Assembly (NCBI GenBank): GCA_031289425.1
Contig: JAITPM010000040.1
Location: 55,423 to 119,422, forward strand
DNA: 64,000 bases
Origin: Fusobacteriaceae bacterium
Lineage (GTDB): Bacteria; Fusobacteriota; Fusobacteriia; Fusobacteriales; Fusobacteriaceae
Direction: 5' to 3'
In this document: piece after piece, positions 2,009-33,065 of the stretch
Numbering within the stretch: position 1 is the first letter of the stretch
Layout of the letters: each line of letters begins with the position of its first letter
Translations under genes and position numbers: made by a program
The notes under the pieces: model-generated
What the model was told of the DNA's origin: nothing
The model's database searches: none
The model's input: the letters and a program-made list of their open reading frames with translations, nothing else

Positions 2009-2059
2009 AAATAGTTTTACTGTTGGATAGATATACAAGTTAATAATTATAACTTATTA

Positions 2060-2088: not shown

Positions 2089-2123
2089 TTAATCACAAAT
2101 TTATTTTAAGGCAGGTTTTTACA

Positions 2124-2927: not shown

Positions 2928-2945
2928 TATAGGGGGTACATCAAA

Positions 2946-3908: not shown

Positions 3909-3955
3909 TATTCAGAACTATATGGTGTGATAAATAAATTTTAAGGAGGCTAACT

Positions 3956-4402
3956 ATGAGCAAAAATCAAATTGGCGGAGGAATTACCGCAATTGTTACA
4001 GGTGCACTTATTGCATATGGACCGCAATCACTCTTTAAGATTTGTGATCAAGGTCATCATCATGCAGGTCATAGCGCTTGTTATTGGACAGCGCAGGCTA
4101 CTATTGGTACCGGTATTATTTTAGCAATATTTGGTATTGTTTATTTATTTGCGATAAGTACTCAATTGCGCATTGGACTTAGTGTAGGCTTTGCAGGTGT
4201 TATAGCTCTCACATTTTTGATTGCTAACGTTCTAATCGGAATGGATCTAGACCCAATGATGGCTTGCCGTATAAAAACTTTGCCCGCACTTAATGTGATT
4301 TCGATTATAACTTTCATATTGGTGATAGCAAATGTAATATGGTTATTGAGCCAAAACTCTCAAAGAGGAGTAGGAAATGAAAAACAAATTCTCACTGCTT
4401 AA
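3956..4402 (+). CDS. DUF4418-like small polytopic membrane protein
   Basis: 148 aa with four hydrophobic segments and a His/Cys-rich loop (CDQGHHHAGHSACYW). Sits directly upstream of an FtsX permease/ABC ATPase pair, the usual context for this family. Confidence 0.55.
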   Translation: MSKNQIGGGITAIVTGALIAYGPQSLFKICDQGHHHAGHSACYWTAQATIGTGIILAIFGIVYLFAISTQLRIGLSVGFAGVIALTFLIANVLIGMDLDPMMACRIKTLPALNVISIITFILVIANVIWLLSQNSQRGVGNEKQILTA

Positions 4403-5585
4403 TATTTCATTAAAAAATATAGGATATAGAAAATTTAGGACAGCATGTCTTGTAGGTATTATAGGATTTTTGTCCTTTGTATTAATTGGAGGTTCACTGC
4501 TATCTGTATGTATGAAAAACGGCATATCTAGTATATCTGCCCGCTTGGGCGCAGACGCAATGTTCGTCCCAATTGGTTACGAACAAAGTGCAGAAGGTGC
4601 ACTGTTACGTGGTGAGCCGAGTGCATTCTATTTTGATGGTGAAACAGCAAAAGAATTGCTATCTATACCTGATATCAAACAGGCAACACCACAATTATTT
4701 ATTGCGTCATTTGATTCACCTCATTGCTCAGCTCAGATTCAAATGATAGGTTATGATGCTGATACAGACTTCCTTATTGCACCATGGTTAAACGGTGAAG
4801 TTCCGGGAGGACCTGGTATGAACGAAGTCGTCGTCGGGAGCAAAATCAATGGGAAAGTTGGAGATGAACTCATGTTTTTTTCACGCAAATACATAGTTGT
4901 AGGGAAACTTGCCCCAACAGGTATGGGTTTTGATACTTCAGCATTTGTCAATATGGATATGTCGCATATTGCGTTGCAGGAATATGTAAAATTAGGTGGA
5001 AAAGGTGTCCCTGAGGGTGATGGTATTATTTCAAGTATCGCAGTGAATGTTAATTCTGGTGTTGATTTAGATAAATTTGCAAAAAATGTCAGATTAAATT
5101 ATCGTGATTTACGTGTTTCTGTGCTTCTGCCACAAGTTATGATTTCGGGAATGGTCTCAAATCTGAATGCTCTGTTAAAAGTCATTAGCATACTTGCAGT
5201 GTTTTTTTGGGTGCTTACCGCAGTGGTATTAGCATTGATATTTGTGCTGTCACTTAATGAACGCAAACGTGAGTTTGGGATTTTTCGAGCACTGGGCTCA
5301 TCGAAAGCGAAACTTGCAGCTATTATTCTCACAGAATCCACAGTTATCAGTACCATAGGTGCTATTATCGGGCTTGGTCTTGTAAGCTTAGTATATTTCT
5401 CGTTTGAGCCATTGATTAGCCAATCTATTGATTTGCCCTATCTACGACCAAGTAATAGTACTTTTGCGGTATTATTCATAGGCGGGTTTCTGTTGTCGCT
5501 TGTTACCGGCCCTATTGCATCGCTGTACTCAGCATTACGAATAAGTAAAATAGCCACTGCGACTATAATCAAGGAGGGTGTGTGA
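4377..5585 (+). CDS. ABC transporter permease, FtsX/MacB-like
   Basis: 402 aa. N-terminal TM segment, large extracytoplasmic domain, C-terminal 3-TM FtsX domain (ERKREFGIFRALGSSK). RBS GAGGAG upstream. Overlaps the previous gene by 26 nt. Confidence 0.8.
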   Translation: MKNKFSLLNISLKNIGYRKFRTACLVGIIGFLSFVLIGGSLLSVCMKNGISSISARLGADAMFVPIGYEQSAEGALLRGEPSAFYFDGETAKELLSIPDIKQATPQLFIASFDSPHCSAQIQMIGYDADTDFLIAPWLNGEVPGGPGMNEVVVGSKINGKVGDELMFFSRKYIVVGKLAPTGMGFDTSAFVNMDMSHIALQEYVKLGGKGVPEGDGIISSIAVNVNSGVDLDKFAKNVRLNYRDLRVSVLLPQVMISGMVSNLNALLKVISILAVFFWVLTAVVLALIFVLSLNERKREFGIFRALGSSKAKLAAIILTESTVISTIGAIIGLGLVSLVYFSFEPLISQSIDLPYLRPSNSTFAVLFIGGFLLSLVTGPIASLYSALRISKIATATIIKEGV

Positions 5586-6253
5586 TGTTACTTCAAGTAA
5601 AAGATGTAACAAAAATTTATAAACGAGCTGGATTGGAGTTTAAGGCTGTAGATAGTGCCGATTTTGTTGTCGATAGCAGTGAATTTGCAATAATAAACGG
5701 ACAATCAGGAAGTGGAAAAAGTACATTACTAGCTATTATTGCGGGGTTGTTATTTCCAGAATCTGGTAAAGTATTCTTTGAGGATGTGGATATAACCCAA
5801 TTGAATGATAGACAGCTTTCAAGACTGCGTAACGAGAAAATAGGATTTATACCACAGGGGCATTGTTTGCTTGATAATTTCACTGTGATTGACAATGTAT
5901 GTCTACCATATTATTTGAAAAAGTTGAATGGAGACCCCTATAAAGTTGCAATCCAATTGCTCGAACGTATAGGAATAGCCCATCTTGCAAATCAGTATCC
6001 AGTGCAGTTGTCCGGAGGTGAGCTTCGCCGTGCTGCAATAGCCCGTGGCTTGATTAATAGTCCGAAACTTATCATAGCTGATGAGCCTACAAGTGACCTT
6101 GACCCTATCAATTCGGCTAACATTATGACTCTTTTTGAGGAAATTGCTAGATCTGGTTCAGCTGTATTAGTCGTGACTCACGAATTCCAAAAACCTATAG
6201 GTTGCAATAAACACTTAACAATGGAAAATGGAAGAATAAGGAATAAAATTTGA
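5585..6253 (+). CDS. ABC transporter ATP-binding protein (LolD/MacB-type)
   Basis: GQSGSGKSTLL Walker A, LSGGELRRAAIARGL signature, IIADEPTSDLD Walker B. The ATG overlaps the upstream TGA (TGATG). RBS AAGGAGGG. Confidence 0.85.
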   Translation: MLLQVKDVTKIYKRAGLEFKAVDSADFVVDSSEFAIINGQSGSGKSTLLAIIAGLLFPESGKVFFEDVDITQLNDRQLSRLRNEKIGFIPQGHCLLDNFTVIDNVCLPYYLKKLNGDPYKVAIQLLERIGIAHLANQYPVQLSGGELRRAAIARGLINSPKLIIADEPTSDLDPINSANIMTLFEEIARSGSAVLVVTHEFQKPIGCNKHLTMENGRIRNKI

Positions 6254-6429: not shown

Positions 6430-7612
6430 ATGAAATATATTCAAAGAAGCTTGTAAAGAAAATTTCTACATATGAGTGAATTCAGTCAAGCAATTCTAGT
6501 AACTGGTGCAAGACAAGTGGGTAAGACTACAATGCTTAGACACCTTGCACAGGGTACAAATCGGACTTATGTGTCACTGTACAATTCTATGGTTCGAATA
6601 CTTGCCAAAGAAGACCCGGTTTTATTCTTTCAAACATCTAAACCACCAATTATCATTGATGAAATTCAATATGCAACTGAACTTTTTACACAAATTAAGA
6701 TAATTTGCGATAATAGCAAAGAAATAGGACTCTTTTGGCTAATTGCTTCTCAAGGTTATAAAATGATGAAAGGTGTTAGTGAAACTTTGGCTGGCAGGAT
6801 TATTATACTGACTCTTTTTAGTTTGTCAACAGCAGAAAAAACAATACAAGATGGGATGATGAGCTTGGGGATAATCCTCTTGATTTTTCTCATGAAATCC
6901 TCTTGAATCGACAAAGCAAAGCCAATAAAACGGATGTTGAAAATGTGTTTCAAAATATATGGCATGGTGGTATGCCCCAAGCTATCTTAGCTGATAATGA
7001 ACAGAGACAAGAGTATTTTAATTCATATGTAAACACTTTTTTAATGCGTGATGTAGCTGATTTAGGCGGTATAACAGATACTATTCGGTTTGCTAAGTTT
7101 ATCACAGCTTGCGCTGCTCTTATTGCACAACAAGTTAATTATGCAACTCTTGCAGAAACTGCTAATATTTCTCAAGTGATGGCAAGGGAATGGCTTAGAT
7201 TATTAGAGGGTTTGGGGGTTATATACTTATTACAACCATATTTTAATAATACCTTGAAGCGGATTACTAAAACACCGAAACTGTATTTTTGCGATACAGG
7301 CTTGGCTGCATTTTTATCAATGTGGCTAACTCCACAAACTTTATTAAATGGAGCAGCAAGTGGATTTTTTTTGAAAATTATGTTGTACTGGAATTGTTAA
7401 AAAACTATTCTTATTCAAAATCAAAGGTAAATATGATATATTTTAGAGATAGTAACGCAAAAGAAATTGATATTTTTATTGAAGAAAATAATGTAATTCA
7501 TCCCATAGAAATTAAAAAATTAGCTAATCCCAATAAGAGTGAAGTTAAAAAATTTTCCGTGTTAGAAAAATCAAGTGTAGAGCGTGGCAACGGTGGAATA
7601 ATTCGTAAATAG
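6430..7612 (+). pseudogene. Decayed AAA ATPase gene (AAA_14 N-terminal domain plus DUF4143-like C-terminal domain)
   Basis: ATG at 6430 (MKYIQRSL) hits an in-frame TAA at 6454-6456. The same frame then continues as ILVTGARQVGKTT (Walker A). The reading frame is split again near 6900 and near 7290-7400 (ORFs 6472..6906, 6903..7400, 7289..7612). Confidence 0.75.
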
Positions 7613-13868: not shown

Positions 13869-15398
13869 CTAACCATTCTCTTTTATATATTTAAATGGAT
13901 CGCCCTCTAAATATTCCTTACGGTATGGGAGAGGGCAATGCTCTGTAATTTTCTTGCAATATTGCCAATTTTTAAGAGCCTTATTAATTCGTCTTGCGAT
14001 TTCAAACACTCCTGAATATCCCATATAATTATTGGCAGGGCCATACAAAGGAAATGTTGCCACACCTTGTTTTACAGAGATATTTCCGGTTCCTGTATGT
14101 CCTATATAAAGGTCAGGATTAAGCTTCTTCACGATATTTATTTGCTCAAATGGTTGTTGTGTTGCAGCATTGTATGGAACGTCATCAATATTCTCTAGAT
14201 TATCAAACAATGGTTCAGAAAATTTATCATAATGATGTCCCTTGAAACCTACAACTTCCATTCCTAAATCCTGTACAACTTCTGCAGTTGCGAGTATTCT
14301 TACTTCCCCTCCGGCAATATAAACTCTTTTTCCTTTTAGTGTTGGTCGAAATTGATCCAATGCTTCATTAATTTCTCTTTCCTCGCTGTCTATAAATTTC
14401 TGTGCGTCTTTCTCAAATCCGAAATGTTCCGCAATTTTAAGTAACCAACGGGAAGTATTTTTTTTGCCCACCGGCATAACATCAATAATATATGGAATTC
14501 CAAAAAGATTGTACACATTCTCAATAAAAAAATCATCATGGGTTCCGCACACACTTACATTTAGTGCAGATTCTGTCATATAACGAAAGTCCTCAGCTGC
14601 AGAATAGCATGGAAGAAAGCGTACATACAGACCGATTGCATTTAACAATCGTTCAAGTTCCAATTCATCCGGACGAGACATTGAGCCGACATTTAGTATA
14701 TTTACAGTGTGTTCATCACGATATTTCTTTTTAAAAATGTAATTTTCATCAGGAATAATATTCGAATCAATTTTGCGTACAGGTGGTCGAACAAGTCCAC
14801 GTAAAATACCATGGTACACATCATCATAGGCCGATGCCATGATTTTTGTTTTAAATCCTGCACAGTGAATCGGAATTAGTATGGCTGCGGTTTCCGATTG
14901 TAGATTATCCAATATATTGTCAACATCATCACCAATAAGAGATGGAACGCAACTTATGGGAACAATTATAGTTTCAGGTCGGAATTCCTTGTCAGCATAG
15001 AGAATCGATTCACGCAATTTCTTCTCTCCTCCGGCAATAACATCAGATTCATCCAGATTTGTGTTGAGCCAAACCACTCCTTCGGCAAGCGGGTCACGCA
15101 GACGTCTGAATGTCTGTGAAGTACCTACAGATCCAATAGTACAAGCTCCGCACCCGATAGGACCGTGCATAATAACCACAGCATTACGAAGCGAATTCAA
15201 CATACCCAAGGATAATGTAAATTGGCAGCCGTGAGTTTGGCTGAATGAGCGATTAGCAGCATTTATACACCCACTTCTTTGAGCGCACCTTATATCATTA
15301 CAAGTTCCAGCAAATGCGATTCCTGTTTCGAGACGACGTTCTCTTACCTCTGGGGCTTTATCACGAAATTTTGGTGGATTTTGATTAAAATTAGCCAT
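13869..15398 (-). CDS. Nitrogenase component 1 alpha-like subunit (NifD/NifE-family oxidoreductase)
   Basis: 509 aa. HGCQFTLSLG, VIMHGPIGCGAC, VPISCVPSLIGDD and IPIHCAGFK cysteine contexts match the NifD/E pattern. RBS GGGAGG. Confidence 0.8.
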   Translation of the reverse strand: MANFNQNPPKFRDKAPEVRERRLETGIAFAGTCNDIRCAQRSGCINAANRSFSQTHGCQFTLSLGMLNSLRNAVVIMHGPIGCGACTIGSVGTSQTFRRLRDPLAEGVVWLNTNLDESDVIAGGEKKLRESILYADKEFRPETIIVPISCVPSLIGDDVDNILDNLQSETAAILIPIHCAGFKTKIMASAYDDVYHGILRGLVRPPVRKIDSNIIPDENYIFKKKYRDEHTVNILNVGSMSRPDELELERLLNAIGLYVRFLPCYSAAEDFRYMTESALNVSVCGTHDDFFIENVYNLFGIPYIIDVMPVGKKNTSRWLLKIAEHFGFEKDAQKFIDSEEREINEALDQFRPTLKGKRVYIAGGEVRILATAEVVQDLGMEVVGFKGHHYDKFSEPLFDNLENIDDVPYNAATQQPFEQINIVKKLNPDLYIGHTGTGNISVKQGVATFPLYGPANNYMGYSGVFEIARRINKALKNWQYCKKITEHCPLPYRKEYLEGDPFKYIKENG

Positions 15399-15404
15399 TT
15401 TTTA

Positions 15405-16739
15405 TTACCTCCCTGAAATTTGGAGCGTTACAAGATCGCTCACTAAATTGAGTCCGCCTGTATATCCGGCGTACCCTTGATTTAACACCACACGACTTGT
15501 AACAGGATAAGTTACTGCAAGAAGCGGGAATCCAAATTTTGTGGATAAATCCCGTTCCAATACACTGCCAATAATAACGGCTGGCCCCAAGGTATCATAA
15601 TATTTTTGATTATTAGATTGTCCCCATCTCTTTTGTATATGTTTTACCAGTGCGGATGCATCTGTATCAAAGACAACTGTCGGAACAGTTGTACTTTCCC
15701 AATTTTCAAATTTTGCAGTTATTATTTCTTTTTCATCATCTGTGATAAAATCTGTAATTTGTGCTACAAGCGGTATCCAGCCAAATTCATCAGATATAAA
15801 CCGTGAAATAGCCGGAACATAATTTGCATCGCCAATTAAAACGGCATACCTACTCAAATCTATATCAAAATAAATGTCAGCAATACGCTCCAAATAGTCA
15901 TAATATCTTATGTCTTCTGATAATATTGTTTTATCCACTATTTTCTTTGGGATTCCGAGTGTATCAGCTACTTTGCATAAAAATTCAGCAGTTTGTGTAG
16001 CACCTACAGGTAGACCTGTAGTTATATAAGGTGTGCTATGTACCTCTTCAAAGATTTTTGCTGACGATATACCGTATGTGTCTGAGAGAATTATATTCAA
16101 CTCAGCCTTGGATGAATTTTTTAAGCTATCAATTGTTTCATTTTCACCAAAGAAAGTATTGACAGTAAGTCCTATTTTTTCCAATAATCGTTTTATCTCA
16201 GCCAGGTTTCCCTTATAAAAGACATCTTGCCCGGGTACAAGTCCGAATACATTTACAACGCCTTTTTGTTTTTTTAGTCCTTTTGTTACAAAATATTTGA
16301 ACAATTCAGTCAATACCATATCGTATCCGACATAGGAATTGCCCTTAAACGAAGGGGTAGAGACTGCTATTACAGGGTATTCATTAAATTCACTTGTTAC
16401 AGATGAGGCATCATCCCCTATCATTTCCACCATACATCCTGTAACAACAACATAGAGATCCCCATCCATGATTTCAATAGTGGTGCGAATCTGTTCCCGT
16501 AACCTGTCCTCTCCTCCAAATACTATTTCTTTTTCCACGACATTTGTGGAACTCCATGATGATCCACCACAATAGCCTCCGCCGATGTATCCGGATCCGG
16601 AATTCGTAGCGTTATATATGTTATATCCACAACCTGTAGACGCATGGATTATAGGGATTGTGCGTGGAAGAGCACGAAGAGTCAATAATGCCCCTCCCAA
16701 TGCACAAGTATATCTTGGTCTATCAACAAATTTACTCAA
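15405..16739 (-). CDS. Nitrogenase component 1 beta-like subunit (NifK/NifN-family oxidoreductase)
   Basis: 444 aa, TTG start with RBS GAGAGGTG. RYTCALGGAL, IIHASTGCGYN and VVVTGCMVEMIGDD cysteine contexts match the NifK/N pattern. Confidence 0.8.
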   Translation of the reverse strand: MSKFVDRPRYTCALGGALLTLRALPRTIPIIHASTGCGYNIYNATNSGSGYIGGGYCGGSSWSSTNVVEKEIVFGGEDRLREQIRTTIEIMDGDLYVVVTGCMVEMIGDDASSVTSEFNEYPVIAVSTPSFKGNSYVGYDMVLTELFKYFVTKGLKKQKGVVNVFGLVPGQDVFYKGNLAEIKRLLEKIGLTVNTFFGENETIDSLKNSSKAELNIILSDTYGISSAKIFEEVHSTPYITTGLPVGATQTAEFLCKVADTLGIPKKIVDKTILSEDIRYYDYLERIADIYFDIDLSRYAVLIGDANYVPAISRFISDEFGWIPLVAQITDFITDDEKEIITAKFENWESTTVPTVVFDTDASALVKHIQKRWGQSNNQKYYDTLGPAVIIGSVLERDLSTKFGFPLLAVTYPVTSRVVLNQGYAGYTGGLNLVSDLVTLQISGR

Positions 16740-18723: not shown

Positions 18724-19881
18724 TTATACTTTATCTGGTATTTCTAAAGCTTGTTCCAAATCATTTATCAAATCGTCTACATGTTCTATCCCTGTAGACA
18801 ACCGCAATGTTGTTTCTAAAATTCCATTCTTTTCTCGTTCTTCTAAAGGTACATCTGAATGTGTCTGTGTGGTAGGGTAAGTTATCAATGTTTCTACTCC
18901 ACCCAAACTTTCTGCAAAACGAATAAGTTTTACGCTTTTTAATACATGCAGGGCAGTTTTTGCACAATCTACTTGAAAAGTAATCATGCTTCCAGACCCA
19001 CGAGATTGATTCTTATTTATTTCATAACCGGGATGATCTTTTAATCCTACATAATATACTTTTGTTACCTTAGGATGATTTATCAACCAGTTGGCAATGG
19101 TGATAGCATTCTTCTGACAAGCTTCCATACGTACAGCAAGAGTTTTTACTCCGCGTAGAACCAACCAACTATCAAAGGGAGCAAGTCCTGAGCCAATAGT
19201 TTTTATCAAAAAACGGAGTTCTTCTGAAAGATCTTTTCTTTTTACTATCAAAAATCCTGCTAGGGTATCATTATGTCCACCCAAAAATTTTGTACCACTA
19301 TGGAGTACGATATCTGCTCCTAAATCTAAAGGATTTTGGAAATATGGAGATAAAAATGTGTTGTCCACAATTAAAAGTAAATTGTGTTTTTTTGCGATTT
19401 CTGCTGTTTTCTGAATATCTGTTATATTCATCATAGGATTTGTAGGAGTTTCAATAAAAATAGCTACCGTTTCCTTTTTAATAAAATCCTCCAGATTGGG
19501 GGTAGATGTATCTAGATAGGTGATGGTCAAGCCATTTTTTATACTGATTTTATCAAAATACCGGATCATTCCGCCATACAAGTCTCTGCTGCTTATAATA
19601 TGCGCTCCAGGCTTAAATAATTCCAGCATAACTGCAATGGCTGCCATACCACTGGAAAAAGCCAGAGCGTCAATCCCATTTTCTAGGGAAGCCACAACTC
19701 TTTCTAATTGTTCTCTTGTAGGATTTTGCTGACGACTATAATCGTAACCGGTGCTTTCTCCAACACCGGGGTGTGCAAAGGTAGCTGTCTGATAAATCGG
19801 AAAGCTGATTGATCCAGTATTATCACACTGTGATGCCAATTGATTATTACTTACACAATTTGTCTCAACACGATATTTCAC
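18724..19881 (-). CDS. Cys/Met-metabolism PLP enzyme (cystathionine beta-lyase / gamma-synthase / gamma-lyase family)
   Basis: PIYQTATF, GYDYSRQQNPTRE, FSSGMAAI, VDNTFLSP, HSGTKFLGGH (PLP lysine). Start set at GTG 19881, preceded by GGGAGG. The ATG at 19917 has no RBS. Confidence 0.85.
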   Translation of the reverse strand: MKYRVETNCVSNNQLASQCDNTGSISFPIYQTATFAHPGVGESTGYDYSRQQNPTREQLERVVASLENGIDALAFSSGMAAIAVMLELFKPGAHIISSRDLYGGMIRYFDKISIKNGLTITYLDTSTPNLEDFIKKETVAIFIETPTNPMMNITDIQKTAEIAKKHNLLLIVDNTFLSPYFQNPLDLGADIVLHSGTKFLGGHNDTLAGFLIVKRKDLSEELRFLIKTIGSGLAPFDSWLVLRGVKTLAVRMEACQKNAITIANWLINHPKVTKVYYVGLKDHPGYEINKNQSRGSGSMITFQVDCAKTALHVLKSVKLIRFAESLGGVETLITYPTTQTHSDVPLEEREKNGILETTLRLSTGIEHVDDLINDLEQALEIPDKV

Positions 19882-19963
19882 AACAACACCTCCCGCAACA
19901 GGATCTCCACCATGCATTTATATTTTTTGTTGCATGTTTCATATCTGACATATTTTTCATCAT
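19865..19963 (-). CDS. Candidate 32-aa Met/Cys-rich leader peptide (MMKNMSDMKHATKNINAWWRSCCGRCCCEISC)
   Basis: RBS GAGGAG lies 8 nt upstream of the ATG at 19963. 4 Met in the first 8 codons and 6 Cys in the last 11. Its TGA (19865-19867) lies 14 nt inside the downstream lyase gene, and the lyase SD (GGGAGG) sits between its Cys codons. Confidence 0.4.
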   Translation of the reverse strand: MMKNMSDMKHATKNINAWWRSCCGRCCCEISC

Positions 19964-20003
19964 AATTTTTTCTCCTCTATCATATTTTAAATATTATAAT
20001 ATA

Positions 20004-21206
20004 TCAATTATTAAAAATTCCTAAAAAATCAAGAACAACTCCTGAAAATGTTAAAATTCCAGTTGTTAATGCCTTTTGGTCTACGACAAATTTACTATTA
20101 TGGCTTGGGGTGAATTCTTCTCCTTCACTTCTGCAACCGATTCTGACAAAAACTCCAGGGTATTTATCTTTGATGTAAGAAAAATCTTCGGAACCCATTG
20201 CTGGAACCGTTAAATCTTTTACATGTTCTTTTCCCAGTATCTGACTCATAACGTTTTTTGTCCGCTCTACCCATATTTTATCATTGTAAAGAGGTGGGGG
20301 TCCTTCTTTGAAAAGCACATTGCAGCTGGCTCCAAAAGCTTTAGTCACTCCATTACATAGTTCTGTAATTCGTTTTTGTAGTTTTATTCTAATTTCTTTT
20401 TCTAAAGTTCGTATGGTACCTTTCAAATAAATCCTTTCAGGAATAATATTATAAGCATCACCGGCACTATGAATACTGCACACAGAAACCACTGCCGAAT
20501 CAACAGCACGGACTTCCCTGCTTACTAGATATTGCAATTGAGTAATAATAGAAGCTCCGATTACTATTGGGTCGATTGCTGTATATGAATGTGCTCCATG
20601 GCCGCCTCTACCAATGATTTCGATATCAAAACTATCTGTGCTGGCCAAATTAACGCCTGATTTAATCCCAATATCACCACCATAAAGTTCATTTATGACG
20701 TGTAAAGCCAGAACCCCGTCAATATTATCCAAGGGTACTTCGTCGCTGCTAAAGAGTAATTTAGCTCCTTCCAGGGTTTCTTCTCCCGGCTGAAAAAAGA
20801 AATATATAGTACCTGAGAATAATTTTTTATAATTATTTAATACTGAGATTACTCCCAATAAAATAGCAGTGTGCGCATCATGCCCACAGGCGTGCATGAT
20901 GCCACTATTTTTGCTACATGGAAAATGTTTTGAATCCTCAGTAATGGGAAGGGCATCCATATCCGCACGTAATAAAATACAACTATTTTCTTGCGGTGCT
21001 TCTAATTTTTCTCCCTTCATAACAGCCAAAAGTCCTGTTTTACCTATTTTAATAATTTGGTCGCAAAAGGAATCTTTCAAGAGTATATTTTCTACAAATA
21101 AACTCGTATTAAATTCTTTCATACTCAATTCCGGATTTTCATGGAAATATTTATAATAAGAATATACTTCATTTTCTATATTTTTTACGATTAATTTTAA
21201 GTCCAT
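20004..21206 (-). CDS. M20D-family amidohydrolase (N-acyl-amino-acid deacylase / hippurate hydrolase-like)
   Basis: 400 aa. RADMDALP, HACGHDAHT, PGEE, GRGGHGA motifs. Confidence 0.85.
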   Translation of the reverse strand: MDLKLIVKNIENEVYSYYKYFHENPELSMKEFNTSLFVENILLKDSFCDQIIKIGKTGLLAVMKGEKLEAPQENSCILLRADMDALPITEDSKHFPCSKNSGIMHACGHDAHTAILLGVISVLNNYKKLFSGTIYFFFQPGEETLEGAKLLFSSDEVPLDNIDGVLALHVINELYGGDIGIKSGVNLASTDSFDIEIIGRGGHGAHSYTAIDPIVIGASIITQLQYLVSREVRAVDSAVVSVCSIHSAGDAYNIIPERIYLKGTIRTLEKEIRIKLQKRITELCNGVTKAFGASCNVLFKEGPPPLYNDKIWVERTKNVMSQILGKEHVKDLTVPAMGSEDFSYIKDKYPGVFVRIGCRSEGEEFTPSHNSKFVVDQKALTTGILTFSGVVLDFLGIFNN

Positions 21207-21249
21207 AGGCCACCTTTGTTTTTTAATTTTTATTCTTTTTTAATTTTTT

Positions 21250-22089
21250 CTATTTTAAATAATCAGGTAAAATCCAAATCTTACTTTGAGTTTTAATATA
21301 ATCTTTAAATTCTTGTGATTGGTAAGCTGCAACGATATCTTTTACCCATTGTTCATCTTTATGTTTTGCGTTTACAGTTAAATGTATATAGTTATCAGGC
21401 AAAATATTTGTAGGAGTCTCTCCGATAAGAGCTGTATTAAAATCAACTCTAGAATTATATGCATCAGAGGCTCTTAAAATGATAAAAGCAAAATCAGTTC
21501 TGGTAGGAACAATATTTGCCCCCTTCAATTCGATAATCTCAAGATTATAAGTATTTTCAACAATATCAGACAATTGATATTGAGTTGAATCTACTTCGGG
21601 TTTTAATTTTATCCAGCCAAGTTGGCTCAACAATAGTAAAGAACGAGCTGTGTTGGAAGGATCATTAGGTAGGGCTAATTTATCTCCTTTAGCGATCTTT
21701 GATAGATCTGATTTTGCACCTGGATATATACCTGCAGGAGCAGTAGGAAGTGGAATAATAACAGCCAAGTCTGTCTTTTGAGCTTTATTAATATTAGCAA
21801 TATAAGCTTTATGTGCATCCACATGAAAATCAATCTCGTCTTCACTCAATGCTATTTCTCTTTGAATAGAATCTGTTATTTCCACGGCCGTTAATTTGTA
21901 TCCTTGTTTTTGCAAAATAGGAACAACGCCACCTTCGAGTAAATCACTAGTTGCTGTAGGCAGTCTGCGATATTTGAGCTCAGGTTTGGCAGCAGCACCG
22001 GCACTTACATTGTTACCAAAAGCTGTAAAAGTTACAATAAATAATACTAATAATAATACTACAAAAATACTTTTTTTCCTTAAATTCAT
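21250..22089 (-). CDS. metQ: Methionine ABC transporter substrate-binding protein (NlpA/MetQ family)
   Basis: 279 aa with signal peptide, NlpA-like sequence. Located immediately downstream of metI/metN. Confidence 0.8.
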   Translation of the reverse strand: MNLRKKSIFVVLLLVLFIVTFTAFGNNVSAGAAAKPELKYRRLPTATSDLLEGGVVPILQKQGYKLTAVEITDSIQREIALSEDEIDFHVDAHKAYIANINKAQKTDLAVIIPLPTAPAGIYPGAKSDLSKIAKGDKLALPNDPSNTARSLLLLSQLGWIKLKPEVDSTQYQLSDIVENTYNLEIIELKGANIVPTRTDFAFIILRASDAYNSRVDFNTALIGETPTNILPDNYIHLTVNAKHKDEQWVKDIVAAYQSQEFKDYIKTQSKIWILPDYLK

Positions 22090-22150
22090 TTTGAATCATC
22101 TCCTGTATAATTTTATTATAATAATTTTATGTTGTATTAATATGAATTTA

Positions 22151-22813
22151 CTAGTGTCTGAAACGTCTTGCAAGGGCATTTCCAAAAGATTGAAATATAT
22201 GAACGATAATAATCAATATTAAAACTGTTATCACCATAAGAGGTGTATTTACTCGTTCATGTCCATAGATAATAGCCAAATTCCCTATACCTCCAGCGCC
22301 TATGGCACCTGCCATGGCAGTAGAGCCCAAAAGGCTGATAGTTCCTGTAGTAAGAGCCAATATTAGAGAAGATTTGGCTTCAGGTATTAGAAAATACCAA
22401 ATAATCTGTTTTTTGCTTGCTCCCATAGATTGAGCAGCTTCGATAATACCTTCATCTACTCCCAACATAGAGTTCTCGAATAATCGAGATAAATATGGAG
22501 CCACATTTACAATCAAAGGGATTAAAGCTGCGGTAGTGCCAATCCTTGTTCCTACTATGAATTTTGTAAAAGGCATAATAGCCACTAGCAGGATAATAAA
22601 AGGTGTGCTTCGTACCATATTAACAATTGTATTTAGGAACAAATACAGATATTTTTTTTCCATGAGACCTTTTGGTCTCGTCAAGATTAAGATTATGGAC
22701 AAGAGCATTCCCAGAAGAGCTCCGCCTATTAAAGAAAGAGCTACCATGTAAAGAGTTTGCCTCGCACAAAGAATAAGTGTCGCTCGTGTTACTTTCAGAT
22801 ATTGTTCAATCAT
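22151..22813 (-). CDS. metI: Methionine ABC transporter permease
   Basis: 220 aa, 5-TM permease with an EAA loop (IIEAAQSMGASKKQI). Overlaps the metN stop. Confidence 0.85.
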   Translation of the reverse strand: MIEQYLKVTRATLILCARQTLYMVALSLIGGALLGMLLSIILILTRPKGLMEKKYLYLFLNTIVNMVRSTPFIILLVAIMPFTKFIVGTRIGTTAALIPLIVNVAPYLSRLFENSMLGVDEGIIEAAQSMGASKKQIIWYFLIPEAKSSLILALTTGTISLLGSTAMAGAIGAGGIGNLAIIYGHERVNTPLMVITVLILIIIVHIFQSFGNALARRFRH

Positions 22814-23826
22814 AGAAGCACCTCTTCATATTCATATAGGTTACTTAAATAATCTGTAACCTCTTTTATTTTTCTATCGGAGCCTGTAATCTGTAGAGAA
22901 AAAACAGTCAAAATCGCATTTTGCACCTCATTCACAGAAACGGATAAGGTATTGATTTCTGTATCAAATTTATTTCTCAATTCCGGAACAAAGGTATCGC
23001 ATACATTTCCCCCCATACATCGTACTGTGAGTATTTTTCCGTTTTTTTTCTCACGCAGTCCTATCAAAACAGGGTCAGGAATCTTATTGTCTATAACACT
23101 GTTGACAAAGGTTTTAGTGATGGCTTCCCGGGGTTTGGCAAAAATTTTTTTAACATCACCTATTTCCACAATGCGTCCTTCTTCCATGACGGCCATTTTA
23201 TTACAAAGATTTTGTACAATATTCATTTGATGAGTAATGATTAAGATTGTTACATCTAATTCTTGGTTTATTTTTTTAAGTAATCCTAATATGGATTCTG
23301 TAGTCCTGGGATCCAAGGCACTTGTAGGTTCATCACACAAGAGAATTGTTGGATTGGTCGCTAATGCTCTGGCAATTCCTACCCGTTGTTTTTGTCCTCC
23401 TGATAAATTGGATGGATACACATTGACTTTCTCGGATAGTTCTACAAACTCCAAAATTTCATTTACTTTTTTTTTGATATCTTTCTTGGGTGTTTTATTC
23501 AGAATCAAAGGCATTGCAACATTTTCATAGACGGTTCGGCTGTTCAAAAGATTAAAATTTTGAAAAATCATTGAAATATTCTTTCGTGCCTTGATTAAAT
23601 CATCATTTTTAAGATTATTTATGATTTCATTATTGACAATGACATTGCCGCTGCTAGGTCGTTCCAATGCATTCACCATTCGGATCAAAGTAGATTTTCC
23701 AGCACCACTATAGCCTATTACTCCAAAGATATCTCCCTTTTCTATAGAAAAACTAATATTTGTACATGCATGGACTTTTAGATTATTCGCATCATAAATT
23801 TTCCCAACATTTTCGAAACGTATCAT
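22810..23826 (-). CDS. metN: Methionine ABC transporter ATP-binding protein with C-terminal NIL/ACT-like domain
   Basis: GYSGAGKSTL, LSGGQKQRVGIARAL, LLCDEPTSALD, plus a C-terminal regulatory domain. Start set at MIRFENV, with RBS AGGAG. Confidence 0.85.
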   Translation of the reverse strand: MIRFENVGKIYDANNLKVHACTNISFSIEKGDIFGVIGYSGAGKSTLIRMVNALERPSSGNVIVNNEIINNLKNDDLIKARKNISMIFQNFNLLNSRTVYENVAMPLILNKTPKKDIKKKVNEILEFVELSEKVNVYPSNLSGGQKQRVGIARALATNPTILLCDEPTSALDPRTTESILGLLKKINQELDVTILIITHQMNIVQNLCNKMAVMEEGRIVEIGDVKKIFAKPREAITKTFVNSVIDNKIPDPVLIGLREKKNGKILTVRCMGGNVCDTFVPELRNKFDTEINTLSVSVNEVQNAILTVFSLQITGSDRKIKEVTDYLSNLYEYEEVLL

Positions 23827-23924
23827 TATTTGGCACACTCCTGTTAGAGATAAATAGAGACTTATTTCATTCTGCATTTATCAATAACCTGGGTATTGTT
23901 TTCCCTCCAGGTTAGGGATTCTAG

Positions 23925-24839
23925 TTATTTCACGCTGTATTTATCAATAACTCCCAATTCTCCCAGCAATTTTTCCAGTTTTTTCAAGTATTTACCACGG
24001 TAATCCTCATAAGGGCGGCGCAAATGTCCACCCGGTAAACCAAGTATATTCAGAGCGGCCTTGATAACAATGGGATTAGAAAATGTATATAATTCTTCCA
24101 ACAATGGGAACCATTTGAAATATTCTTTTCGTGATTCTTCCACTATCTCTATACTTGTCCAAGGTCGAGAGTAGAATGCTGATTCTTCCGGAATAATATT
24201 TCCACCGATATTAGCGGTACCTGTACCACCAACAGCCAACGTAGGCAATACGATAGCATAACCAGGGGCATCACAACACATGATTTTTATTTTTCCTTCA
24301 GTCAAACGTTGCACTTGTACCAGTTGTTCTACACTACCTACAGCTTCTTTGTCTACAACAAAATTTTCATGACGGTCAGATAGGAGCTTGATTGTTTGGG
24401 GTGTTACATGAACACCCAATCGTGAAGGGTTATTATAAATCCCACATGGAATGCTAATAGAATTCATACAGGCATCAAAATGCGCAAAAGCTGCAGATTG
24501 TGGTACCAATACATATGGGGGAACAGTGAATATAACACCGTCTGCACCTTGGTATTCATGATATTGTGCTAGGTCAATACTGGCTTCTGTTGTTAGTGCT
24601 GCCGCTGAAAAGAAAACCGGTATTCGCTTGTTAACAATTTTAAGAACTTGGCGTACAATTTCTTTTTTTTCTTCCACCGAAAGTAGCGTGGTTTCTCCGG
24701 CCGAGCCGAGAATAAATAATTGCGAAGTACCGTATTTAATTTGCCTCTCAATCAAAACAGCAAAAGCATCGAAATCAATTTTGTCCTCCTTTGTAAATGG
24801 TGTTGGCATGGCGACCCATGAGCCGGTTAAATTTGTCAT
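23925..24839 (-). CDS. DapA/NanA-family class I (Schiff-base) aldolase
   Basis: 304 aa. MPTPF, GSAGETTLLSVEEKKE, YNNP, VVDKEA (catalytic Lys context). RBS AAGGAGG. Confidence 0.8.
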   Translation of the reverse strand: MTNLTGSWVAMPTPFTKEDKIDFDAFAVLIERQIKYGTSQLFILGSAGETTLLSVEEKKEIVRQVLKIVNKRIPVFFSAAALTTEASIDLAQYHEYQGADGVIFTVPPYVLVPQSAAFAHFDACMNSISIPCGIYNNPSRLGVHVTPQTIKLLSDRHENFVVDKEAVGSVEQLVQVQRLTEGKIKIMCCDAPGYAIVLPTLAVGGTGTANIGGNIIPEESAFYSRPWTSIEIVEESRKEYFKWFPLLEELYTFSNPIVIKAALNILGLPGGHLRRPYEDYRGKYLKKLEKLLGELGVIDKYSVK

Positions 24840-24890
24840 CGTTGTCCTCCTTAGAATTGCAAATATTTTATGTATTTATTTTCATTTATA

Positions 24891-24926
24891 AAAAAAAATA
24901 CTTCAGAAATTTTTGAAGTATTTTTT
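24891..24926 (-). terminator. Strong stem-loop terminator/attenuator in the leader of the sulfur operon
   Basis: An 11-bp perfect stem, AAAATACTTCA (24895-24905) with TGAAGTATTTT (24914-24924), has an 8-nt loop and is flanked by A and T runs. It lies between the 50-aa sORF stop (24990) and the DapA-like start (24839). Confidence 0.6.
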
Positions 24927-24989
24927 GACCGTTATAATTTATTTGCTAATCTGTACTCAATCATTGTTTGCTAGGCGGCAAAACAAATT

Positions 24990-25142
24990 TTACATTGGTG
25001 CAGTCCGGTAAAAACCTTTTTCTAATTTCTTTTTTGGGTTCTGTCTATACAAAAAAATGTGAAACATGTTCATACATGTACACATCATACAGCTATGCAT
25101 CATACAGCAACAGATACCAATCCCCAAAAATAATAGAATCAT
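24990..25142 (-). CDS. Candidate 50-aa Cys/Met-rich small protein or leader peptide (MILLFLGIGICCCMMHSCMMCTCMNMFHIFLYRQNPKKKLEKGFYRTAPM)
   Basis: RBS AAAGGAAG lies 8 nt upstream of the ATG at 25142. 6 Cys and 8 Met in 50 residues. The longer track ORF begins at a TTG that coincides with the predicted -35 box. Confidence 0.4.
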   Translation of the reverse strand: MILLFLGIGICCCMMHSCMMCTCMNMFHIFLYRQNPKKKLEKGFYRTAPM

Positions 25143-25176
25143 TTTCTTACTTCCTTTGTCAGAAATTATTGTATCA

Positions 25177-25205
25177 ATCTTATCGTAAATTTTGTTTTTA
25201 GTCAA
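25177..25205 (-). promoter_or_regulatory. Sigma-70-type promoter candidate for the sulfur operon leader
   Basis: On the minus strand: TTGACT (25205-25200), 17 nt, TAAGAT (25182-25177). About 35 nt upstream of the sORF ATG. Confidence 0.4.
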
Positions 25206-25281
25206 ATATAAAAAATATATGATAAATATATAAAAAATATATAAAAAATATATTTTTAAAAACTTTGTTATAAATATAAAA

Positions 25282-25313
25282 GGCTCTTATAGACGTATCC
25301 GACAAAAAGAGCC
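25282..25313 (-). terminator. Terminator candidate ending the upstream sigma-54 operon
   Basis: GGCTCTT (25282-25288) pairs with AAGAGCC (25307-25313) across an 18-nt loop. On the minus strand it is followed by TTTTAT. Confidence 0.4.
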
Positions 25314-25376
25314 ATTTTATTACTCTATAATATTATAATAAACTTATCTAAAAAATATCTAAAATTTCTATGCATG

Positions 25377-25979
25377 TTATATATGATTGTACTCATCCTT
25401 ACCCAACAATCTGATAAACCATGATATTTTTGCACTTTCTTCCAATTCTTCTAGTCCAAAAAATGCTTCCATTATTGATTCTCCGCCTACTATTGATCCA
25501 TGATTTTGAAGAAGGAATCCATCTCCGGAATTTATTCTTTTTTTCATTTCTGCAAATAATTCTTTACTTCCTGGTGGGAAATATTTTATCAAAGAAATTT
25601 TTCCAACTTTCATTTGTAAATATGGGGTAATATTTGCAATTATATCATCTTCATTTTTATGCTTTAAAATTGACCAAAGTGTTGAATAAAGGCTGTGAGT
25701 ATGTATGACTGCTTGGATTTTATCTGATTTATTATATAGAGCCAAATGAAGAGAAAGTTCTTTGCTTGGTTTTATATCAGAAATAGTTGTCCCATCAAGA
25801 GTTGTTATCGCAAAATCTTTTTTCTCTAAAATACCAAAACATGTTCCACTTCCGGATATATATATTTTATCATTATCTCTGAAACTGATATTTGCTGATG
25901 AACCTGATGTTTTATTTCTCTCAAATAAGCTTTTTGATACCCATATTGTTTCTTGAAATTTTTTTCCCAAATCTTTCAT
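25377..25979 (-). CDS. Class II aldolase/adducin-family protein (OtnC-like decarboxylase/aldolase)
   Basis: 200 aa. SSANISFR, SGSG and VIHTHS metal-ligand contexts. Immediately downstream of the DUF1537 kinase. Confidence 0.75.
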   Translation of the reverse strand: MKDLGKKFQETIWVSKSLFERNKTSGSSANISFRDNDKIYISGSGTCFGILEKKDFAITTLDGTTISDIKPSKELSLHLALYNKSDKIQAVIHTHSLYSTLWSILKHKNEDDIIANITPYLQMKVGKISLIKYFPPGSKELFAEMKKRINSGDGFLLQNHGSIVGGESIMEAFFGLEELEESAKISWFIRLLGKDEYNHI

Positions 25980-31001: not shown

Positions 31002-31133
31002 ATTTATTTTGAATTATTTAAATACGTAAAATATTGTTTTTGAACAGAATAGATTGATTTTATATTATAAATGTTGTAAAATATGTTGTAATATACGTTG
31101 CAGCATATGCAACATGTTTCAGGAGGATGCAAC

Positions 31134-33065
31134 ATGATAAATATATTTTTTATTGTTCCTTATCCGGAATTGAAACCTATAATAAACGAAATTTATAACA
31201 ATCATCCATTTAAAAAATCTCTAAATGTAAATTTTCTTGTAATGACAGTAGATATGGTTAGAAAATATAAGATGGAAAAAGTATATGATGTTTATGTAGG
31301 TCGTAATTTTACATTTAAAGAATTGAAAAAAATGTACCCCAATAAAGCAATTTTGGAAATTCCGATTACAGGATATGATATCGTACAGGCAATTTGTGAA
31401 GCACATGAAAAATATCATCCTAAAAAAATAGGTATAATTGGAAGATTTTTAAAATTTTTTAATGTACTTGATTTTAATAACTTGGAAGAAATAGGGAATT
31501 GTCAATTGATAAGTTATCCGATTGATGAAGTACATGATATGGAAACGAGCATAAGAAAGGCAAAAAAAGACAAATGCGATTGTATCGTAGGGGGATATTC
31601 CACTACATTATATGTTAAAGACAAGGGAATAGATGCAGTCACTATAAAGGTAAGCAAAGAGACCATATATAAAGTATTCGAAGAGGCCATACATATAGCA
31701 CAGGCAATACATGAAGAACGTGAAAAATCCGAAATATTACGGATTATAACAAAGACTTCAAATACAGGGATTTTTTATATAAATTCAGAAAAAAATATAG
31801 AAGAAATAAATGATGAAGCTAAAAAATACTTTTTAAATACAGATATAGATACATATAATCGGTCTATCTTCCAAATAGCACCATTTATGAAGGATGCTAT
31901 AAATACATGCTTTGAAACAGGAAACATTGTTTCAAATAAATTATACACTTTTAAAAATATAACAATATCCGTTGATTATACTCCTGTAAAAGTCGATAAT
32001 ATTATTTCAGGAATCATTATATGTTTCTTTACAGTTACTAAAGTACAACAATTAGAATCACAAATAAGGAAAAAAATGAGTGAAAAAGGATTGGTTGCCA
32101 AATACAAATTTAGTGATATTATCTATAAAAGCAGTGTTTTTAAAAATTTAATTCAAAATGCTAAAAAATACGCTGCTGTTTCTTCCAATATTTTGATAGT
32201 AGGTGAGACAGGAACAGGAAAGGAACTATTTGTACAAAGTATACATAATGAAAGTAGCAGGAAGGATGAAAGCTTTGTTGGGGTGAATTGTGCAGCTCTT
32301 TCTACAAACTTACTGGAAAGTGAACTATTCGGGTATGAAGAAGGAGCGTTTACAGGTTCAAAAAAAGGCGGACAAATAGGTTTGTTTGAATTGGCACATA
32401 AAGGAACTTTATTTCTTGATGAGATTTCTGAAATCCCTATTTCGTTTCAAAGTAAGTTATTACGTGTATTACAAGAACATGAAGTAAGGAGGGTGGGAGG
32501 AACTACGTTTATTCCAATTGATGTACGTATTATCACAGCCACAAACAAAAATATGAAAAAATTACTTGCAGAAGGAAAATTCAGAGAAGATCTCTTGTAT
32601 AGGTTGGATGTTTTAAAATTACTTATTCCACCATTAAGAGAAAGAAAAGAAGATATAATAGAATTATTTAAGTATTATTTGAATTATCATTGCCAAAAGC
32701 TGGGATTTATTATGCCTTCATTTTCAAAAGAAGCGGAATTTATAATTTCTAATTATAAATTCCCAGGAAATATAAGAGAACTTATCAACATTACAGAACG
32801 CTTAAGCGTTCTGAAAAATAATGATGTCGTATCTAAAGAAGATATGCTCACTATGTTATATCAAGATGATATTGATGACAATAAAGCCTATGATTTAACA
32901 TTGCCAAATGATTTATTTATAAATTGTGAAAAAGAAGATGAAAAAGAAAAAGCTAACATAAAAAATATTTTAATGAGTGTGAATCATAATAAAATTAAAG
33001 CAGCCGAGAAACTCGGCATAGATAGAACTACATTGTGGAGAAAAATGAAGAAATACGGGATATAG
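31134..33065 (+). CDS. Sigma-54-dependent transcriptional activator, PrpR-type N-terminal sensor plus PAS, AAA+ and Fis-HTH domains
   Basis: GETGTGKE Walker A, GAFTGS (GAFTGA loop variant), ELFGYEEG, RVIATN-like ITATN, C-terminal KAAEKLGIDRTTLWRKMKKYGI. RBS AGGAGG before the ATG at 31134. Confidence 0.85.
   Translation: MINIFFIVPYPELKPIINEIYNNHPFKKSLNVNFLVMTVDMVRKYKMEKVYDVYVGRNFTFKELKKMYPNKAILEIPITGYDIVQAICEAHEKYHPKKIGIIGRFLKFFNVLDFNNLEEIGNCQLISYPIDEVHDMETSIRKAKKDKCDCIVGGYSTTLYVKDKGIDAVTIKVSKETIYKVFEEAIHIAQAIHEEREKSEILRIITKTSNTGIFYINSEKNIEEINDEAKKYFLNTDIDTYNRSIFQIAPFMKDAINTCFETGNIVSNKLYTFKNITISVDYTPVKVDNIISGIIICFFTVTKVQQLESQIRKKMSEKGLVAKYKFSDIIYKSSVFKNLIQNAKKYAAVSSNILIVGETGTGKELFVQSIHNESSRKDESFVGVNCAALSTNLLESELFGYEEGAFTGSKKGGQIGLFELAHKGTLFLDEISEIPISFQSKLLRVLQEHEVRRVGGTTFIPIDVRIITATNKNMKKLLAEGKFREDLLYRLDVLKLLIPPLRERKEDIIELFKYYLNYHCQKLGFIMPSFSKEAEFIISNYKFPGNIRELINITERLSVLKNNDVVSKEDMLTMLYQDDIDDNKAYDLTLPNDLFINCEKEDEKEKANIKNILMSVNHNKIKAAEKLGIDRTTLWRKMKKYGI

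Follow-up and report, generated by a model that had tools for sequence, protein, structure and literature searches.

A cysteine-codon small open reading frame over the start of a trans-sulfuration gene in Fusobacteriaceae: a candidate ribosome-read gate

Leader peptides rich in cysteine codons were predicted in 2005 in Mycobacterium, Propionibacterium acnes and Bifidobacterium longum (Seliverstov et al. 2005, PMC1262725), and polycysteine leaderless small open reading frames (sORFs) act as Cys-responsive translational attenuators in M. smegmatis, where they were termed the 'Cys ribulon' (Canestrari et al., bioRxiv 10.1101/834739). The mycobacterial Cys tract pairs with a Shine-Dalgarno (SD) sequence about 100 nt downstream, and stalling on it induces expression (bioRxiv 10.1101/834739). 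The subject of the present analysis is a 32-codon sORF on the minus strand (positions 19865 to 19963) of a 64,000-nt stretch of a Fusobacteriaceae metagenome-assembled genome (MAG; contig JAITPM010000040.1, positions 55,423 to 119,422), hereafter called the window. The sORF overlaps the start of a gene for a pyridoxal phosphate (PLP)-dependent enzyme of the trans-sulfuration family, referred to here as the lyase. From comparative sequence data, a probability of about 0.5 was assigned to the reading that this sORF is translated and senses Cys, gating the lyase through ribosomes that occupy the lyase start region; that it is a functional translated element of some kind is very probable. To our knowledge, sulfur amino acid regulation in Fusobacteriota is essentially uncharted, and neither Cys (outside Actinobacteria) nor, especially, Met has been described as a regulatory codon of classical leader-peptide attenuators. 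Gram-positive neighbours regulate sulfur amino acids by S-adenosylmethionine (SAM) riboswitches, T-boxes and CymR-type repressors. In a full-text literature search, Cys or Met leader ORFs were not found described for Fusobacteria or Firmicutes, nor Met-codon leader peptides for any organism. The first-pass annotation of this DNA had set the locus against the background of low-GC bacteria, in which Cys leader peptides were said to be unusual; the organism is a Fusobacteriaceae MAG and not a low-GC Firmicute, and such peptides are known in Actinobacteria.

The sORF, designated type A among the three types of leader ORF described here, begins with ATG ATG at 19963, 8 nt downstream of an SD sequence GAGGAG (19972 to 19977, minus strand), and its translation is MMKNMSDMKHATKNINAWWRSCCGRCCCEISC, followed by a stop. 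Four of the 32 codons are Met (codons 1, 2, 5 and 8) and six are Cys (codons 22, 23, 26 to 28 and 32), in an operon whose pathway is that of the sulfur amino acids. It is thus a short ORF with its own initiation signals that overlaps its putative target gene, as expected of a leader peptide, and its runs of two and three Cys codons in a sulfur-metabolism context match the polycysteine definition of at least two consecutive Cys codons. Cys22 and Cys23 lie at 19900 to 19895, Cys26 to Cys28 at 19888 to 19880, and Cys32 at 19870 to 19868. Between the two runs, sORF codons 24 and 25 (GGG AGG, 19894 to 19889) form the lyase SD, while the lyase GTG (19881 to 19879) begins at the second base of Cys codon 28 and ends at the first base of codon 29. 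These parts were combined into a core element (19879 to 19900, minus strand), 15 to 16 nt of which are common to three related loci discussed below (L001, L162 and L173). The sORF stop, TGA, occupies 19867 to 19865 and begins 14 nt after the G of the lyase GTG. The window also contains a frame with a classic GTGA start/stop overlap, but the sORF uses another. The first-pass annotation had listed the GAGGAG sequence, the paired ATG codons, the Cys codons around GGGAGG and the GTG, and the stop 14 nt inside the lyase gene; all were found in the sequence, and the geometry proved exact, with Cys codons on the lyase initiation region and the stop within reach of re-initiation. The sORF peptides had no match in a collection of 15 billion proteins, in which ten such leader peptides of 30 to 50 codons were checked.

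The geometry depends on the start of the lyase gene (18724 to 19881, minus strand), for which public annotations differ. The IMG entry (P0241) starts at ATG 19917 and encodes 397 amino acids, while the NCBI protein (P0001, 385 amino acids, 100% identical, 'MAG: Fusobacteriaceae bacterium') starts at GTG 19881. GTG 19881 was deduced to be the correct start because it is the one used by NCBI, because the lyase homologues align from residue 1 of the protein that begins there, and because ATG 19917 is not conserved in the closest relative, L173, where no ATG is present at that place and a stop lies just upstream. The type of enzyme, cystathionine gamma-synthase or gamma-lyase, was less clear. The best profile matches were to the MccB-type gamma-lyase, which was the best in NCBIfam, and to the gamma-synthase, all below curated cut-offs. 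An Rfam search of 11 Lachnospiraceae and other orthologous loci, made for a clue to the role of the enzyme, matched no regulator.

The loci available for comparison were collected with the lyase. Genome and metagenome scans gave 160 loci, almost all from Lachnospiraceae or other Clostridia at 63 to 70% identity, of which only L001 was informative; further look-ups gave a dozen more. The sORF was present in every Fusobacteriaceae relative found, and these belong to two lineages, lineage 1 consisting of the window and L173 and lineage 2 of L001, L162, L163 and L172; the ORF itself is conserved in L173, L001, L162 and L172. It was absent from approximately 165 other orthologous lyase loci (Lachnospiraceae and other Clostridia, 63 to 73% identity). 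The lyase homologues L161 and L164 to L169 (70 to 73% identity) were without it, and some of these have an Rrf2 regulator instead. No polyCys leader was seen at the loci of NifD-like homologues (L170 and L171, from Synergistaceae and other termite-gut MAGs), and no Cys/Met sORF at those of DapA-like relatives (L174 to L176, 83% identity).

Within lineage 1, L173 is a metagenome contig with the gene order of the window, its DapA-like protein and lyase being 96% and 91% identical to those of the window. Its sORF, MMKKVLETKFATKNMNMWWTSCRGGCCCEISC, is also of 32 codons and is preceded by the SD AAGGAGAG. The two sORFs differ at 19 of 99 nt, giving 11 non-synonymous and 3 synonymous codon changes, while the adjacent lyase genes differ by 35 non-synonymous and 92 synonymous changes; the sORF peptide was therefore deduced to be free to drift. 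The frame is nevertheless intact in L173, and the run of three Cys codons is kept through a synonymous TGT to TGC change; upstream of this run, L173 has one Cys codon where the window has two. The Met codons at 5 and 8 have disappeared and new ones have arisen at 15 and 17, so that the count stays at 4. When 19 random substitutions were simulated, the probability that the frame stayed open with the three-Cys run and at least five Cys codons was 0.024, and that it stayed open with at least four Met codons was 0.04.

In lineage 2, the lyase is 74 to 75% identical to that of the window, and the sORFs (MKMKEKMVRKENKEVRRCCCVGPSRDEVRQ in L001 and MKMKEKMVKKSKNERGGCCCVGPSRDEVRQ in L162, each with the SD AAAGGAGG) encode a peptide of the form MKMKEKM...CCC... 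that is unrelated to the peptide of the window. Met codons are at positions 1, 3 and 7, and three Cys codons form the spacer between lyase SD and GTG in the same register as in the window. The two sORFs differ at 12 positions, all within nt 25 to 53, and again the frame and the three-Cys run are kept, with a TGT to TGC change, while the lyases are 95% identical. Across both lineages, a strong SD at a canonical distance of 4 to 8 nt and an ATG head the sORF in all five sequences; the sORFs run for 30 to 32 codons in sequence of 31 to 34% GC, where stop codons are frequent; the core GG(A/G)GGTG(T/C)TGTTGTG is common to the window, L173, L001 and L162; and within each lineage the spacer has changed only by TGT to TGC, which is synonymous. 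The distance from the lyase GTG to the sORF stop downstream of it is 14 nt in the window and L173 and 32 nt in L001 and L162. The sORF also stayed with the lyase through a rearrangement of the operon, standing directly after a terminator in lineage 2 and 5 kb downstream in the window. In two lineages, therefore, the regulatory codons and the frame are conserved and the peptide sequence is not. This was the comparative outcome predicted by the first-pass annotation for a charged-tRNA-Cys sensor, and that part of its reading is borne out in L173 and in L001, L162 and L172.

Two further patterns were seen in the same alignments. Codons 9 to 18 of the lineage 2 sORF (L001 2300 to 2328; L162 3967 to 3995) differ at 12 of 29 nt between these two genomes, whose flanking leader sequences are almost identical and whose lyase genes are 95% identical; this would fit either a local hypervariable block or a replacement tract. 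In each lineage, the two members are separated by the pair AGG-TGT to GGG-TGC, one change being in the SD and the other synonymous in the first Cys codon of the run of three (window 19886 to 19894; L173 approximately 6948 to 6956; L001 2322 to 2330; L162 3989 to 3997). As a result, the window and L001 have one 15-mer in common and L173 and L162 another, and the pair may be either a parallel change or a co-adaptation.

One alternative is that the ORF is non-functional and open by chance, its nucleotides being conserved only because they belong to the lyase initiation region and a promoter. This was judged quite unlikely. In its favor are the limited number of independent lineages (two), the neutral evolution of the peptide, the fact that no pipeline annotates the ORF, and the probabilities of the frame simply staying open at the observed divergence, which were 0.22 for lineage 1 and 0.57 for lineage 2. 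It does not account for the SD and ATG in all five sequences or for the length of the frame at such low GC, and the joint probability of 0.024 was obtained from lineage 1 alone. It likewise leaves unexplained why the same register recurs in a second lineage with an unrelated peptide and why operon rearrangement did not separate the sORF from the lyase.

The composition of the window itself also bears on the Cys codons. Only 3 of its 223 intergenic sORFs have six Cys codons, and two of these three are led by an SD and ATG and lie in the same sulfur operon, namely the sORF under study and a 50-codon ORF at 25142 to 24990. In shuffled windows, stretches of 11 codons with at least six Cys are expected at 0.01 per window. 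Three successive TGY triplets occur at 13 places in any frame on both strands, and only the two sulfur-operon sORFs carry them outside long ORFs. The tgttgtt spacer between SD and start is unique to the lyase among the 56 initiation regions of the window, the other spacers being A/T-rich. A further proposal is that the sORF is translated without sensing amino acids and serves constitutively, as a coupling or 'standby' upstream ORF, to unfold the GTG-start region, the Cys codons being a by-product of a U/G-rich spacer. Such a role would be consistent with the sORF stop 14 to 32 nt past the lyase start, within re-initiation range, with the weaker GTG start of the lyase, and with a helix over the GUG in L001 that would need melting; moreover, the frame that reads three Cys codons is one of only two able to overlap the lyase start. 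The proposal was considered improbable, as it explains neither the extra Cys codons outside the spacer (Cys22, Cys23 and Cys32 in the window; Cys22 and Cys32 in L173) nor the turnover of Met codons at constant count. The two independent spacer changes, both synonymous for Cys, and the packing of two other leaders of the same sulfur loci with Cys and Met codons are also unexplained, and the frame with the classic GTGA overlap, which exists in the window, is not the one used.

No strong RNA structure was found around the target, the fold energies being equal to those of shuffled sequence (z = +0.2 for the window and −0.3 for L173). A conserved RNA structure around the target was also rejected, given z-scores of +0.2, −0.4 and −0.3 and pairing partners that differ per lineage: the UGU run could pair with GCAACA of the sORF itself in lineage 1 and, in L001, with ACGACAACACC, which belongs to the lyase gene. 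The window and L173 each allow a small anti-SD pairing (UCCUG/CGGGA and CAUCCU/GGGGUG, respectively). No terminator/antiterminator pair is present between the sORF and the lyase, since the two overlap. As there is no strong structure at the target, direct occupancy is favored over a hairpin switch.

Under the proposed gate, a ribosome would wait at Cys22/Cys23 or at Cys26 to Cys28 when Cys-tRNA is scarce. Its footprint of approximately 30 nt (approximately 15 nt on each side of the P site) would cover the lyase SD when stalled at codon 22 or 26, and a ribosome at codons 26 to 28 or 32 would also cover the GTG. Because this footprint would lie over both the SD and the start, no 30S initiation on the lyase would be expected, which amounts to a veto. 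When Cys is plentiful, ribosomes would run through and terminate 14 to 32 nt inside the lyase, leaving the unfolded initiation region free for re-initiation or for fresh 30S binding. Direct occlusion and failed coupling alike would predict less lyase when Cys is short. The sORF probably also senses charged tRNA-Met: when Met is scarce, the 5' Met codons would hold ribosomes approximately 40 to 60 nt upstream, and the lyase initiation region would be left free. The sign of the veto would make sense because the enzyme, if it is a cystathionine gamma-synthase, consumes Cys.

The sORF could instead sense Cys with the opposite, mycobacterial sign, so that in Cys starvation a stalled ribosome would increase the output of the lyase and of the genes after it. 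An inhibitory structure might be melted, the mRNA might be shielded from Rho or RNases, or re-initiation might be fed. Sensing of this sign was regarded as unlikely, although several points speak for it. The validated mycobacterial precedent works in this way (10.1101/834739), the operon includes Cys-forming functions (cysK, for example, scored above its curated cut-off), the lyase is matched best in NCBIfam by the MccB-type cystathionine gamma-lyase, and the anti-SD pairings in the window and L173 and a 13-bp helix in L001 offer structures that might be melted. On the other hand, stalling would take place on the lyase SD and GTG, and the ribosome would thereby occlude the very site to be freed, while the mycobacterial Cys tract lies approximately 100 nt from the SD with which it pairs. 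No structure is conserved between the lineages, fold energies match those of shuffled sequence, and the lineage 2 lyase stands behind a Met-only leader, apart from the cysK operon that is controlled by a Cys leader.

A functional Cys-rich micropeptide, whether metal-binding or a precursor of a ribosomally synthesized and post-translationally modified peptide (RiPP) for radical-SAM or nitrogenase-like enzymes, was deemed very unlikely, as was the variant in which starvation induces a +1 frameshift fusion to the lyase. The C terminus is Cys-rich and a radical-SAM/NifB-like gene is nearby in lineage 2; for the variant, the lyase is read in the +1 frame with respect to the sORF, a frame that is also open ahead of the GTG. 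Yet the sequence is conserved neither within nor between lineages (11 non-synonymous against 3 synonymous changes), the C-terminal tails, EISC and VGPSRDEVRQ, are dictated by overlapping lyase codons, and the radical-SAM protein is a NifB-type fusion of the kind expected for cofactor assembly. A SCIFF-type Cys-rich RiPP precursor was accordingly rejected, the protein collection also holding no match, and the frameshift fusion was rejected on reading the sequence, which has no slippery site permitting P-site re-pairing at the UGU codons.

Several points weigh against a Cys-sensing veto by occupancy. The evidence comes from only two independent lineages, all of them uncultured MAGs or metagenome contigs, and part of the three-Cys run is constrained in any case by the lyase GTG and initiation region. 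The 13-bp helix of L001 could sequester the lyase GUG, which would imply coupling rather than free initiation, although it is not conserved. The direction of the enzyme is ambiguous, as gamma-synthase and gamma-lyase could not be told apart from sequence; for a Cys-producing enzyme, it would be maladaptive to be vetoed when Cys is scarce. The weakest step is the role given to the Met codons, as the adjacent ATGs could simply secure initiation.

Two other types of leader ORF were found at the same sulfur loci. At the operon head in the window, 5 kb upstream of the lyase, a type B leader ORF (MILLFLGIGICCCMMHSCMMCTCMNMFHIFLYRQNPKKKLEKGFYRTAPM, 24990 to 25142, minus strand) has an SD and ATG and contains 6 Cys and 8 Met codons among its 50. 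It is preceded by a promoter-like sequence for the operon leader, TTGACT-17-TAAGAT (25177 to 25205, minus strand), whose −35 block TATATTTGACTAA is identical in L162 and L001. It is followed by an intrinsic-terminator hairpin in the minimum free energy fold (24890 to 24926, minus strand), located between the type B ORF and the dapA-like gene, with a 13-bp stem AAAAAAUACUUCA/UGAAGUAUUUUUU and nine U. From these features, the leader at 24890 to 25205 looks like a classical leader-peptide transcription attenuator that uses Cys and Met codons. Type B homologues are present in L173, with a slightly different peptide, and in L162 and L001. In lineage 2, the type B leader is directly upstream of the Cys sORF and lyase and is Met-only (MTILFSLMFTMTMMAMRMATMRPYLIANHRRK, 32 codons, nine Met and no Cys; L162 3724 to 3822 and L001 2057 to 2155, plus strand), followed by an intrinsic terminator at L162 3886 to 3913; it is a candidate methionine-codon leader-peptide attenuator. 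In the alignment, the terminator core is identical between the lineages and the top of the stem differs by compensatory changes, while the extra codons CCCMMHS of the window are an in-frame insertion relative to lineage 2. The L162 type B leader folded better than its shuffles (z = −3.0), and the terminator was picked up by the scan.

The type C leader ORF of lineage 2 (L162 3279 to 3424; L001 1671 to approximately 1802; minus strand) is Cys-rich, with 6 to 8 Cys and 5 to 6 Met codons, and heads a divergent operon of nifH-like, NifB-like, cysK and nifDK-like genes. It has a near-consensus promoter, TTGACA-17-TACAAT, and the SD GGAGG. The ORF reads MIRNFSGKAPFTMAMCCRMCCCKNNTFCHRADGVPKNMTMRPRRIPSG in L162 and ...GKAVCCCCMCCCENNTFCHR... 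in L001, and an in-frame 12-nt indel between the two keeps the Cys run. Two terminator-like hairpins follow the ORF, the second of which precedes nifH, and the Cys codons form the 5' arm of a terminator-like hairpin (GUGUUGUUGCAAAAACAACAC and a U run); the leader fold gave z = −2.8. Taken together, these bacteria appear to use Cys/Met-codon leader ORFs repeatedly at their sulfur loci, and this raises the prior that the sORF over the lyase is one of them. The set is an addition to the first-pass annotation, as it includes a second Cys/Met leader with a terminator 5 kb upstream in the same operon.

In combination with the gate, the operon-level leader ORF (Met-only in lineage 2, Met and Cys in the window) would probably turn transcription on under starvation. 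The combined logic would then be to transcribe when Met is short and not to translate a Cys-consuming, Met-forming enzyme when Cys is short. This logic would fit a cystathionine gamma-synthase that consumes Cys for Met, with the PatB encoded downstream as the beta-lyase. In lineage 2, the lyase alone stands behind the putative Met-only attenuator, and the Cys-forming cysK/nif-like operon has its own putative Cys-codon attenuator. A broader and decidedly tentative extension is that termite-gut Fusobacteriaceae run their sulfur amino acid genes by a Cys/Met 'ribulon' of ribosome-read leader ORFs instead of riboswitches, T-boxes and repressors. Cys starvation would veto the lyase. Met starvation would license it in two ways: ribosomes would be held at the 5' Met codons, and the Met-codon attenuator upstream would be read through.

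The search for known regulators was consistent with the first-pass annotation, which had seen no T-box or SAM riboswitch. At the gathering threshold, Rfam gave no riboswitch, T-box, SAM riboswitch or known leader in the whole 64-kb window, and at E ≤ 1 over 19700 to 25400 it gave nothing relevant. The minus-strand operon begins with a 537-nt leader, followed by a DapA-like gene, MetN, MetI, MetQ, an M20 amidohydrolase, the sORF and the trans-sulfuration-family enzyme. After the lyase come a NifX/NifB-C-like protein, a flavin mononucleotide (FMN) reductase-like protein, CysK (above its curated cut-off) and two nitrogenase-like NifK/NifD proteins, and the 3' part encodes a PatB C-S lyase, a D-Cys-desulfhydrase-family protein, an NMT1-type binding protein and an enolase-superfamily protein.

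A promoter-like sequence, TTGATA-17-TATGAT (19979 to 20007, minus strand), is located just upstream of the sORF and is a weak candidate. It was rejected as an internal promoter, the number of such sites being not above shuffle expectation and the predicted start cutting into the sORF SD. In L173, the equivalent place just before the sORF has TTTGCA-17-TATAAT. The spacer between the M20 gene and the sORF is 286 nt in L173 (6593 to 6878) and approximately 40 nt in the window, the extra sequence being AT-rich and repetitive. Because of this long spacer with its promoter-like sequence, the L173 sORF and lyase may also be transcribed on their own.

In two segments of the window (13869 to 16739, minus strand; 183 to 6253, plus strand), NifD/NifK-like genes occur without NifH or a radical-SAM NifB and adjoin cysK, an NMT1-type ATP-binding cassette (ABC) transporter and a DUF4418/FtsX/ABC module. 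The closest relatives of the nitrogenase-like genes are in MAGs of termite-gut Synergistaceae, Peptococcaceae and Treponema, and the gene island is probably mobile between phyla. The same set of modules is present in a termite-gut Synergistaceae locus (L170), with close homologues in Peptococcaceae and Treponema MAGs, which suggests a sulfur-acquisition island exchanged between phyla. On a high-GC termite-gut contig (L171, 1831 to 1932, plus strand), nifH-like and NifX-like genes flank a 33-codon ATG ORF (MNLEMNLFKRGMCICERERQMKICHCCSADLCK) in which 6 Cys are scattered; this ORF has no Cys-codon run and no obvious relation to the sORFs and may be due to chance.

The third six-Cys sORF of the window (31054 to 31137) has a TTG start and no SD. 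It was rejected as an artefact because repeats there create spurious Cys-rich frames on both strands. These are direct repeats TGTTGTAA and the inverted repeat GTTGCA-N5-TGCAAC (31060 to 31135, plus strand), and they probably serve as operator or enhancer sites of the PrpR_N/sigma-54 activator gene downstream of them. The real start of that gene is probably ATG 31135, after AGGAGG, rather than TTG 31098.

What appears to be new at this locus is the occurrence of a Cys-codon leader ORF in another phylum and with a different geometry; the principle is shared with the known actinobacterial cases. If the proposed reading is correct, ribosome-read Cys-codon sORFs would have evolved independently of the actinobacterial ones, and the placement of the sensing codons on the target ribosome-binding site would invert the usual sign and provide a simple stop to a Cys-consuming step when Cys is short. 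The Met-rich leader ORFs would then be, as far as known, the first leader-peptide attenuators for methionine. The set of sORFs would also illustrate that functional ORFs of 30 to 50 codons escape every annotation pipeline.

When compared with the mycobacterial attenuators, the sORF and its companions are similar in being short, unannotated ORFs with Cys runs, several per genome, upstream of sulfur or cysteine genes. The proposed mode of action is also similar in that ribosomes would pause on Cys codons, control would be exerted at the downstream ribosome-binding site rather than by a terminator alone, and the peptide would be irrelevant. The differences are that the host belongs to Fusobacteriota and not to Actinobacteria, that Met codons are present as well, and that neither of the two hallmarks of the mycobacterial family, the leaderless start and the distant duplex, is found: the sORF is SD-led, and its Cys tract lies on the SD and start of the gene that it overlaps instead of pairing with an SD approximately 100 nt away, with no stable or conserved duplex (z approximately 0). 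Because the Cys tract lies on the SD and start and no stable duplex is formed, the predicted sign, repression at low Cys, is the opposite of that in mycobacteria.

The trpL, hisL, thrL, ilvL and pheL attenuators are likewise short ORFs with their own ribosome-binding site and with codons for the amino acid of the linked operon, the codon content being conserved and the peptide not. The type B and type C leaders also share the terminator hairpins of this class, whereas the sORF over the lyase has no terminator or antiterminator and is placed inside the operon on the initiation region of the next gene. Systems of termination-reinitiation and erm/cat translational attenuation have in common with this locus that the stop of the first ORF is only tens of nt from the start of the next gene. 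In them, as in the gate proposed here, access to the downstream SD depends on where the ribosome stands on the leader. The erm/cat ribosome stalls upstream in response to a drug and frees the SD by RNA refolding, whereas in the gate proposed here the stall site would be the SD and start themselves and the signal would be tRNA charging.

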